From IMG/VR virus record IMGVR_UViG_2651869748_000001, positions 1-7,640 of that record: 7,640 bases of DNA; one strand, written 5' to 3'. Within the stretch, counting starts at the first letter, position 1, and the number at the start of each line of letters is the position of its first letter. A program made the translations under genes and the position numbers. The DNA is from a virus (Monodnaviria > Loebvirae > Hofneiviricota > Faserviricetes > Tubulavirales). Positions 5,313-7,313 of this stretch are shown in pieces. Below the pieces are notes generated by a model. The model saw only the letters and a list, made by a program, of their open reading frames with translations, did no database searches and was not told the origin of the DNA.

Positions 5313-7313
5313 TCAGGGACAGTTATTGTCACAAGTCCAAGGGTCGGCTTCGCCGCCCCCACCCGCCGCGCGGGAGCGCGTCGTGCGGTGTCGTGAAGCC
5401 GACGAAATAAACACAGATTCATAGCTGCTGCCGCTTCTGACTTCCTCTGCGCGGATTTTTTCTGCGGGGGTCATACGGCGGACAACACAGCCCATAAAAC
5501 GGGTTATGACCGGAACGGGGCCAAACATGAAACCGGAAATCACCGGTGCGCAGGGTTCACCGTAACGGTTAAAACGGGGTTTACCACCTTCCTGCGGCTG
5601 AACGTAAAACGGACGAAGCAGACGTTCAGAACAGAAGAAACCGCCGTTCAGCAGGATATAGGTCCGGAAATCGCCTGCATCACAGGCCATGCGGATGGCT
5701 TCCAGTTCGGCGACCTGCTGCGGCGTGAACTGCTGCATATTGATATGATGCGCCTCAAGCGGTGCGCGGAAGCTGCGCATCTGGCGGTAAGCCGTAACGG
5801 AGGGAACGCCAAAGAACTGGAACAGGCGAAGGCGCGTTGCTTTCTGCCAGCAGGCGGCACGGCTGACGGCATCACAGAATGAACGGGCAGAATAACGGTC
5901 ATTCAGGGCGGTAATACCATCCGCACTGACATCACCCGCCATTTTGGTGATGTACTTCACGATGTAACGGAAACCATCACCCTTTTCAGGGTCAATAGCC
6001 TCAATACGAATACGGTGCTCTTTCGCCCCCTTTTCATCCGGCTCATCGCGCATGGCCTCTTCACGGAAAATGGCCAGCACCGTTGCGCTCTCATGGGGAT
6101 TGCAGTAAATCAGGAAATTCCAGTGCGTTGTACCGTCAGCATGAGGCTCGACCGTGCGCAGACCGGGTATCTGGATACCGGCTTTATCCAGTCTGCGGCA
6201 GACCCGACGCCAGACGGTATTCAGCCAGGCGTGCGAATCCTTAACGGTCGGGCAACCTGCTTCCCACCATTTTTTATTCGGACGAGAATGCCATTTTCCG
6301 GCAACTTTAAAACTGGTCGTCGGGTGAAAACGTGACGGCGTGGTGAGCACGATGAAATAGCCGGACAGCCCCATATCTTCGGACAGTTCACAGACGGCCT
6401 TTCCACGAACGCAGAGTTCAGCAATCCGGTTTTTCGGATTCGAAACAGAGGCGTTATGCGCATCTTCCAGCGTACAGACCAGCTCATTAAACGCATCAAA
6501 GACACCGGAGGACCGGAGATACTTTTTCACGCGTTTACTGCGGACAGCAAACAGGTCACGATGCCAGTCAGAAATATAAGGCGCGTTGCGGTTCAGTATG
6601 CCGAGCATGCGACAGACCTCATTGACCCGCTGGTCACGGATAACCCGCAGGAAACGGGTGACAAAAGCCAAATCAGTCAGACGCTTAAGCAATCCCTCAT
6701 CGCCGTAACGCTCATGATAAGTGGCATAAACGGGGGCGAAATCAAAGCCGGAGATGGCCTGAAAATAGGCCATCACATTGAGAAGGTGATGCTCTGGTAC
6801 ATCACTATAAATGGCCCGAGAAACAAGGCAGTCACGAACAACCGAATCAGCCACCTCAGCAATCTGCTCATCAGTGCAGAAAAGCGAGAATTCATAAGGG
6901 TCTCCGTCCTGATTGAAGAAAGCAAAACGGTGCGCGGACTCAAGCGCCATCAGCGCATTTTTCACACCGAGCTGGTAAACCAGACGGCAGAAAGCATGCG
7001 CCACGGTGAACGAAAACGAGCCAAACTGTGATACCAGTCCGGCAGCCCTGCCCCTGTCAGCGAGAGATAAATCCGTGCAGTTAATTCCGTAAATCACACG
7101 GTCAACCTGCGTGTTACGCGGCAATGCGAGCTGTGCAGATAAGGTCCCGACCTCATCACGATACTGGCGGGAAAGCGTGGCAAAATTGCGGGTGGCAACA
7201 TCGCGCTCAGTCCGAAAATGCACGCGTTCGGGCAGCGTCAGGCAGGGACGACCAAGGGCAACGGATGCCGCGTCGATGGCGTTATACGCTGTAAGGATGG
7301 CTGATTCAGTCAT
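5313..7313 (-). CDS. Rolling-circle replication initiation protein, phiX174/P2 A-protein-like (HUH endonuclease)
   Basis: 666-aa ORF, ATG at 7311-7313 preceded by GGAGGGGGG. Contains [13 protein letters not shown], matching the two-tyrosine Y-x-x-K-Y-x-x-K active-site signature of phiX174 gpA / P2 gpA-type Rep proteins. Upstream [15 protein letters not shown] resembles the metal-binding His motif region. First gene of the phage block. Confidence 0.8.
5343..5403. repeat. GC-rich inverted repeat inside the 3' end of rep
   Basis: GTCGGCTTC (5343-5351) and its exact reverse complement GAAGCCGAC (5395-5403) flank about 43 nt of extremely GC-rich sequence (gccgcccccacccgccgcgcgggagcgcg...). Confidence 0.5.

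Follow-up and report, generated by a model that had tools for sequence, protein, structure and literature searches.

The stretch of DNA analysed here, called the window below, is 7,640 nucleotides (nt) long (IMG/VR record IMGVR_UViG_2651869748_000001) and carries all of its long open reading frames (ORFs) on the minus strand. According to the ORF list and to matches in Pfam and PHROG, these ORFs together form a complete inovirus gene set. Our analysis concerns the replication gene rep at 5313-7313 (minus strand), which encodes a protein of 666 amino acids plus stop (Rep; start codon ATG at 7313-7311, stop codon at 5315-5313). RefSeq labels identical or near-identical proteins as 'replication endonuclease'. 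The results given below make it likely that 5313-7313 is the rolling-circle replication initiator gene of an integrative filamentous prophage (inovirus) of Escherichia coli. On the strength of profile matches and alignments, Rep is an ordinary member of the P2/phiX174 A-protein family except for the HUN motif of its clade, in which Asn occupies the place of the second His of the HUH motif.

An earlier reading made without database searches (the sequence-only reading) had placed Rep with initiators of the phiX174/P2 A-type rather than the Ff pII-type, and had proposed a profile search as a check. This search gave a significant match to the A-protein family in two collections. Rep matched the Pfam family Phage_GPA (PF05840) with 167.3 bits (E-value 5.9e-49, profile positions 72-316 of 321; curated cut-off 31.4 bits) and PHROG 91, annotated as 'nicking at origin of replication', with an E-value of 6.5e-129 over amino acids 124-666. 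PF05840 is also matched by the A protein (gpA) of the P2-like phage Wphi (408 bits), by VFJ Rep (365 bits), by a CTXphi RstA-like protein (292 bits) and by phiX174 gpA (210 bits, E-value 6.3e-62). The closest phage matches in tblastn were those of Vibrio phages, VFJ orf698 (fs2-like) and the RstA-like protein of strain VCE232, with 30% identity over 66-84% of Rep and E-values of about 1e-51; hundreds of P2-like replication endonucleases came after them. Against the Ff gpII-related family PF23343 (REP_ORF2-G2P) Rep scored 17.5 bits, below the cut-off of 27.8 bits that canonical gpA-type proteins do pass with 28-37 bits. The Pfam scan of Rep found no other gpII-type family at E-values up to 0.01, and a search of NCBIfam returned no match. 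The proposed assignment was thereby borne out. That inoviruses such as CTXphi and VFJ/fs2 use a gpA/RstA-type Rep is already known (PMC4439123).

All three motifs of the family could be located in Rep (minus strand throughout). Motif I lies at 6324-6356 (amino acids 320-330), the His motif or motif II at 6105-6149 (amino acids 389-403) and motif III at 5943-5972 (amino acids 448-457). In a MAFFT alignment motif I (TxPSRFH) and motif III (YxxKYxxK) follow the same order as in the reference proteins. The dual-tyrosine motif named by the sequence-only reading is present: Tyr450 (5964-5966) and Tyr454 (5952-5954) form the catalytic pair, followed by Lys457, and the segment Y450-I-V-K-Y454-I-T-K457 aligns with YIAKYISK of Wphi gpA and YVAKYVNK of phiX174 gpA. 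T324, P326, S327 and H330 of motif I, E389, P390, H391, D393 and H397 of motif II as well as Y450, Y454 and K457 are invariant among 40 sequences from inside and outside the clade of Rep. The first Thr of the canonical TxT in motif I is Val322 in this clade.

The HUH motif gave the superfamily its name and serves as a search key for rolling-circle enzymes. In Rep it reads H397-W398-N399. Asn399 is encoded by AAT at 6117-6119, one transversion away from the His codon CAT. In the MAFFT alignment HWN falls on HWH of Wphi gpA, HFH of phiX174 gpA, HNH of VFJ and HHH of the RstA-like protein, and an alignment of 237 family sequences guided by a hidden Markov model (HMM) again put N399 on the second His. 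A mis-registered motif was rejected, as both alignments agree. His occupies this position in 97% of the 193 family members outside the clade, where EPHHDGTPHWH is the most frequent form; the consensus given in the earlier reading, EPHhDGtpHWH, was therefore correct. Only His (188 sequences) or Asn (46) occurs at position 399 among 235 aligned family sequences. Rep thus has motif I and the two-tyrosine motif III of PF05840, and lacks the two-His form of motif II.

The sequence-only reading had regarded both an Ala and an Asn as alterations of the His motif. This holds for Asn399, which is unusual, correctly registered and found throughout the clade. It does not hold for Ala392, a position at which A, K, Q, G, S, E or R also occurs in relatives that keep HWH (HMM-guided alignment). 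Metal coordination may accordingly be non-canonical, as had been proposed, through residue 399. A side observation concerns the first His of EPH (H391 in the window): about 15 of the 235 family members have Asn, Gln or Met instead, e.g. EPNHDGTPHWH in Billgrantia (locus L027). These replacements indicate that more than one histidine of the motif is replaceable in nature.

An exhaustive search of 1.84 billion representatives yielded 1916 family members. Among the best 150 of these, which were listed, the clade of the window forms a separate block of about seven cluster representatives, one of them 38% identical to Rep, after which the score falls from 349 to 200 bits. In another homologue search HWN was present in every match between 98% and 41% identity (E. 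coli, Salmonella, Morganella, Providencia, Xenorhabdus), and every more distant match had HWH. N399 is invariant in an alignment of 26 clade sequences with a mean column identity of 49% and 34% identity for the lowest pair. Genomes representing species added further HWN Reps from Salmonella diarizonae, five Xenorhabdus species and a metagenome-assembled genome of the Psychromonadaceae. Within the clade codon 399 is AAT or AAC, amid neighbouring codons that show synonymous variation, and CAY is found in all HWH relatives. His was never seen at position 399 within the clade although it is one base change away. A full-text literature search, the coverage of which was incomplete, retrieved no relevant description of a HUN variant of the HUH motif.

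Comparison with three E. coli variants gave ratios of nonsynonymous to synonymous substitution rates (dN/dS) of 0.09-0.17 for Rep. The gene is under strong purifying selection. These values bear on the question whether Rep might be a decaying or non-functional remnant, with Asn as a disabling mutation in defective prophages. The related prophages at loci L011 and L014 are truncated and many database entries are partial, which would fit such a remnant, though the partial entries come mostly from short contigs. Against it, the ORF is intact and of full length in dozens of lineages, Asn is kept down to 34% identity together with synonymous codon change, the gene set of the window is complete, and a disabling change one mutation away from reversion would not stay fixed across genera. 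We consider a remnant very improbable. A pseudogene was effectively ruled out by the conservation seen in the alignments and by the dN/dS values.

Asn at the second HUH position is not confined to the clade. Five further representatives with HWN (P0115, P0171, P0185, P0197, P0231) stand outside it, and in the core domain they are closest to HWH proteins. This suggests several independent, tolerated switches from His to Asn, restricted strictly to Asn, a recurrence judged from nearest neighbours in the core domain and not from a formal phylogeny. The occurrence of only His or Asn at the position, together with these scattered cases, is as expected for a tolerated ligand replacement. P0115 (EPHHDGTPHWNFLIF) is a separate gpA-type Rep with HWN, encoded at 8001-9872 of locus L033 (Logan contig SRR24908198_4554). 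The prophage concerned encodes a PM2-type P2_N/P2_C spike protein and is a corticovirus-like element, not an inovirus.

The replacement of His399 is one of a set. We compared 41 clade sequences with 193 other family members over the core and looked for residues that are fixed in the clade and rare elsewhere. Besides Asn399 these are Cys308 (elsewhere Glu in 89%), Val322 in motif I (Thr in 96%), Pro383 (Tyr), Tyr403 (Phe in 89%), Glu419 (mostly Tyr), Gly447-Phe448 (Ala and Thr), Met458 (Asn in 77%) and Gly460 (Asp in 81%). Through the changes at 458 and 460 the usual K-N-x-D-G after motif III has become K-M-A-G. These fixed replacements indicate that the surroundings of the catalytic motifs were rebuilt as a set. 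Replacements near the motifs explain the lower Pfam score of Rep and the failed match to PF23343, too.

Four regions can be distinguished in Rep. The N-terminal region (6534-7313, about amino acids 1-260) is all-helical, with a predicted local distance difference test score (pLDDT) above 90 in the helices between residues 2 and 268 of an AlphaFold2 model. It is followed by the nuclease core with the HUH-endonuclease fold (5754-6530, amino acids 262-520) and by a C-terminal conserved region (5430-5753, amino acids 521-628), which is common to the wider gpA family beyond the Pfam domain and up to the end of which, residue 628, the model is confident. Many of the non-clade proteins among the listed matches of the exhaustive search reach residues 600-665; their matches begin at about residue 200, and the first 200 or so amino acids (6714-7313) have relatives only inside the HWN clade. 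This N-terminal helical region might be a module for recognition of the origin or of a partner. The last 38 residues (5316-5429, amino acids 629-666) have no consensus in the clade alignment and are predicted to be disordered (pLDDT below 50). The earlier reading was right about the length of 666 amino acids; what it called a Gly-rich C-terminal tail is a single GGGG run within this unconserved segment.

The AlphaFold2 model of the full-length protein, computed from a 40-sequence alignment, reached a pLDDT of 88.5 and a predicted template modelling score of 0.85, with the helical N-terminal region extending to about residue 268. Within the core, strand 317-323 bears motif I and strand 384-390 ends in EPH; HWN is part of strand 396-404, and helix 448-459 carries the tyrosines. 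The modelled core thus shows the arrangement of an HUH fold, i.e. the His motif on the central strand and the Tyr residues on the following helix. Among predicted viral structures the best Foldseek match was the replication protein of a Vibrio filamentous phage (E-value 1.4e-19), followed by microvirus initiators. In another list of fold matches, NS1 of minute virus of mice, Rep of adeno-associated virus 5, bocavirus NS1, TnpA-REP and RepB of pMV158 stood lower down, with unrelated folds interleaved. Sequence matches in the PDB to designed helical repeats, vinculin and DnaK were discarded as chance.

In solved HUH enzymes both metal ligands sit at alternate positions of a single strand and share a face. 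H397 and N399 likewise occupy alternate positions of strand 396-404 in the model and thus share a face, as the HUH histidines do. Alternatively it might be that Rep is an active initiator in which Asn399 is no metal ligand, the metal being held by H397 together with E389, H391 or D393, and residue 399 having a structural or hydrogen-bonding role. The four residues named are invariant in both clades and would provide enough ligands without 399. His and Asn, the sole residues at this position, are of similar size and both are hydrogen-bond partners, and ligand assignment in the family is uncertain given that some relatives have Asn, Gln or Met where Rep has the EPH histidine. The position of 399 on the same face as H397, the conservation of His there outside the clade and the fact that the His-to-Gln change of circovirus Reps falls at the same position (PMC10288648) argue for a ligand. 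We regard a purely structural role of Asn399 as unlikely.

The genomic context points to an integrative phage. By megablast, 42 of 5426 complete E. coli genomes contain the element, in each case in the chromosome and in up to 11 places; the deposited phage collection gave no megablast match to it. In E. coli AST205 two consecutive prophage units of 8578 nt are located next to hipBA in the dif region (locus L008, 2825-14229), and the genes of both units, including that for Rep, carry identical protein accessions. Two independent assemblies (loci L005 and L006) are circular permutations of one unit of 8.72 kb. In Salmonella, Xenorhabdus and Providencia the clade Reps adjoin genes for a homologue of a 141-amino-acid protein of the window (p141, see below), for Zot/pI and for the secretin, which assigns them to inovirus prophages.

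Immediately left of window position 1, after the stop codon of the secretin gene, follows a non-coding block of 148 nt that is 97% conserved between phage variants. It is located at 5852-6000 and 14430-14530 of L008 (AST205) and at 8668-8731 plus 1-95 of L005. The block contains an imperfect hairpin of about 97 nt, the arms of which are dif-like half sites (AGTGCGCATAA-TGTGACACGCG-TTATGTTGAAA ... CATAACGTCATTGTGCGCACT) and the stem of which is GC-rich (GGCCGCTGCG/CGCAGCGGCC). Inside this hairpin a dif-like XerC arm, GTGCGCATAA, is present at each tandem junction, and the 11-nt sequence AGTGCGCATAA is the junction of the circularly permuted contigs L005 and L006. The hairpin looks like a single-stranded phage attachment site (attP) for XerCD in the style of CTXphi. 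An inovirus Rep, tandem copies in the dif region and a dif-like attP, the three features of a CTXphi-type module, occur here together; tandem integration and the hairpin with dif-like arms indicate a life style resembling that of CTXphi.

We consider it probable that Rep is a functional two-tyrosine rolling-circle initiator of the CTXphi/VFJ type with a HUN variant of the HUH motif. Its steps can be modelled on those established for phiX174 gpA, P2 gpA and CTXphi RstA. Rep would first bind the plus-strand origin, either in the double-stranded replicative form or within a tandem prophage. Tyr450 or Tyr454 on the motif III helix would attack the scissile phosphate, giving a 5'-phosphotyrosine link and a free 3'-OH that would be extended by the host polymerase together with a host helicase of superfamily 1 (SF1). 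After one round the second tyrosine would cut the regenerated origin and the first link would be resolved, whereby a circular single strand is released. The divalent metal polarising the phosphate would sit on the beta-hairpin formed by amino acids 384-404, held by H397, the side-chain carbonyl of Asn399 and one of the invariant residues E389, H391 and D393. The clade enzyme would then be a working HUN variant analogous to circovirus HUQ, in which the Asn change is accompanied by E308C, T322V, F403Y, N458M and D460G. A HUN Rep probably prefers the harder metals Mg2+ or Mn2+, as an oxygen donor replacing an imidazole would favour these.

Several findings weigh against a functional HUN initiator. 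The polar residues E308, T322, N458 and D460, which are highly conserved elsewhere, are lost in the clade, and this could mean a lowered or altered activity instead of a simple ligand swap. Sequence searches of the PDB, made with Rep itself and with profiles of the family and of the core, retrieved no relative of solved structure, so that even for canonical gpA-type proteins the metal ligands are an assumption. Some prophages of the clade are visibly decayed, and those at L011 and L014 have no Zot match. No origin was located. The region upstream of rep is unrelated between the window and L005 though their Reps are 98% identical. An origin within the gene itself, the arrangement of P2 and phiX174, was sought in a codon-aware alignment covering nine rep genes of the clade: nowhere do 8 or more successive nt agree in all of them, third positions are mildly more conserved at the protein motifs only, and the block behind the secretin gene, outside the window, was the only conserved non-coding block found. 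The literature yielded no experimental work on Rep or any other clade member. Disruption of rep in the characterised phages CUS-1 (E. coli) and YpfPhi (Yersinia) abolishes virion production (PMC4266046). The members listed for five further E. coli Rep clusters of the clade (Rep of the window belonging to P0001) are from E. coli and Shigella only and none is labelled YpfPhi or CUS-1. A link of the clade to YpfPhi/CUS-1 was considered; no evidence emerged for YPO2274 as a clade member, and the link is not claimed.

The lost polar residues also leave room for a HUN enzyme that is attenuated or re-purposed, in which the loss of His399, E308, T322, N458 and D460 lowers nicking or changes the reaction. 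Such an enzyme could e.g. depend on a host factor such as HU, or nick slowly and within tight limits, which would suit a tandem prophage in the chromosome, since nicks there carry the risk of double-strand breaks. Nicking by CTXphi RstA requires HU, and encounters of replication forks with a nicked ori do harm (PMC4439123). The co-ordinated replacements hit residues that are 77-97% conserved elsewhere, the PF05840 score of Rep is well under those of VFJ Rep, the RstA-like protein and phiX174 gpA, and PF23343 stays below its cut-off. The strong purifying selection speaks against attenuation, however, as does the strict conservation of the catalytic tyrosines, the lysine and most motif residues. 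The many E. coli genomes with multiple near-identical prophage copies likewise argue for efficient replication and transmission. This possibility appears quite improbable to us, though less so than a remnant, and an initiator that works with HUN remains our preferred interpretation.

Rep shares with the VFJ and CTXphi Reps not only PF05840 but also its place as the first gene of the inovirus replication module. Integration in the dif region, tandem prophages and a hairpin attP made of dif-like half sites are likewise known from CTXphi. Its HUH nickase RstA becomes linked to ori(+) through a 5'-phosphotyrosine and can be active on tandem prophages as well (PMC4439123). Unlike in Rep, both histidines are present in the Vibrio proteins (PHNHFLYF, PHHHMLLF), which also have the canonical TxT and, behind motif III, NID. 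Furthermore, the phage of the window has its own secretin gene, unlike the Vibrio phages, and the N-terminal 200 or so amino acids of Rep are unrelated to theirs.

The replication endonucleases of Peduoviridae, among them P2 gpA, for which Wphi gpA stands here, are 28-32% identical to Rep over about 55-60% of its length. Order and spacing of TxPS[RK][FY]H, EPHxDG and the Y-x-x-K-Y-x-x-K helix agree with those in Rep. Where Rep has HWN together with E308C, T322V, F403Y, N458M and D460G, P2-type gpA reads EPHHDGTPHWHMMLF; it also has a different N-terminus and serves a double-stranded tailed phage. The textbook example of the two-tyrosine rolling-circle mechanism is gpA of phiX174 (Microviridae). 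Its motifs I-III (LTLADDR, LHFHAVHF, YVAKYVNK) align with those of Rep, but it is much more distant, with a longer insert in place of EPHxDG and a canonical HFH. The phiX174 origin lies inside gene A, whereas we found no embedded conserved element in rep of the window.

A lineage-wide replacement of the second His by an amide is known from the HUQ Reps of circoviruses, other CRESS-DNA (circular Rep-encoding single-stranded DNA) viruses and Replitrons, where the amide is Gln and not Asn as here; the HUQ Reps of circoviruses and of other CRESS-DNA viruses are regarded as functional (PMC10288648). CRESS-DNA Reps have a fused superfamily 3 (SF3) helicase domain, which Replitron transposases do not (PMC10288648). 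HUQ Reps are not close homologues of Rep, have a single catalytic Tyr and act in eukaryotic hosts; the likeness is one of possible mode of action and not of membership. Rep, with its two tyrosines, its Asn and no helicase domain in the Pfam scan, does not belong among the HUQ-type CRESS-DNA Reps.

From these comparisons we would file the HWN proteins as a homologous, non-canonical (HUN) subfamily of gpA/RstA-type initiators in integrative inoviruses of Enterobacterales. A further-reaching interpretation is tentative and in our view rather doubtful. It would see in them a distinct, unremarked gpA-type subfamily with a rebuilt catalytic centre (H399N, E308C, T322V, F403Y, N458M, D460G) and a different metal or geometry, and in the replacement of His by an amide at the second HUH position a recurrent event (Asn at least three to five times in bacterial virus Reps, Gln in CRESS-DNA viruses).

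Screens based on the HUH motif would miss real members of the family if, as it appears, a whole clade of phage initiators works with HUN. The clade and the scattered HUN cases suggest that an amide can take the place of the second His not only in circoviruses but also in bacterial viruses, and in the clade nature may have provided a test of how two-tyrosine initiators assemble their metal site. Since the prophages sit at dif in human isolates of E. coli and Salmonella, Rep offers a handle on whether they are active. A different metal preference, if true, might lead to orthogonal HUH-tag reagents for DNA-protein conjugation. If Asn399 merely replaces His and the chemistry is unchanged, the result is a small annotation note. 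Altogether this is a modest variant of an otherwise ordinary protein, of moderate interest to those working on HUH enzymes and filamentous prophages.

The upstream control region of rep extends over 7314-7409 (minus strand), with a ribosome-binding site GGAGGGGGG at 7317-7325, 3 nt upstream of the ATG. Reading by eye revealed a possible rep promoter consisting of TTGACA (7392-7397), a spacer of 17 nt and TATAAA (7369-7374), which is only a suggestion. The calls of a consensus promoter scan did not include this element, as its -10 hexamer lacks the final T. TTAGAA/TTCTAAG repeats surround it at 7330-7405 (minus strand); as possible operators, they would overlap the promoter of rep.

The region upstream of rep appears as a mosaic regulatory module (window 7314-7640, L005 1-960, L008 4826-5651). 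Directly upstream of rep the window has an ORF of 62 amino acids on the plus strand (7452-7640; PHROG 5219, E-value 2e-22). The same module contains a PHROG 2503 gene and then a PHROG 5219 gene in L008, and a 153-amino-acid repressor with an HTH_3 domain in L005. The homology between the window and L005 ends exactly at the start codon of rep.

Directly after rep follows the gene for p141 (4857-5282), a protein matching PHROG 30648, the function of which is not known, and having no Pfam match. Homologues with 36-39% identity are encoded shortly downstream of rep in six of nine clade loci (Salmonella, Xenorhabdus, Providencia). We regard p141 as a candidate single-stranded-DNA-binding or RstB-like partner of Rep. 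The remaining inovirus genes, on the minus strand as well, comprise small membrane-like ORFs and genes for a major-coat-like protein of 86 amino acids (4282-4542), a pIII-like protein with a long Gly/Ser repeat and a match to Phage_Coat_A (2915-4222), a pVI-like protein (2550-2912), Zot/pI (1335-2546) and the secretin/pIV (1-1224). GGGS/GGGN-type runs are the usual flexible linkers of pIII-type adsorption proteins. The run inside the pIII-like gene (SSGGGSSGGGNSGGG..., 3300-3700, minus strand) is unusually long, and the repeats of this gene give rise to a strong GC skew and to many spurious overlapping ORFs on both strands.

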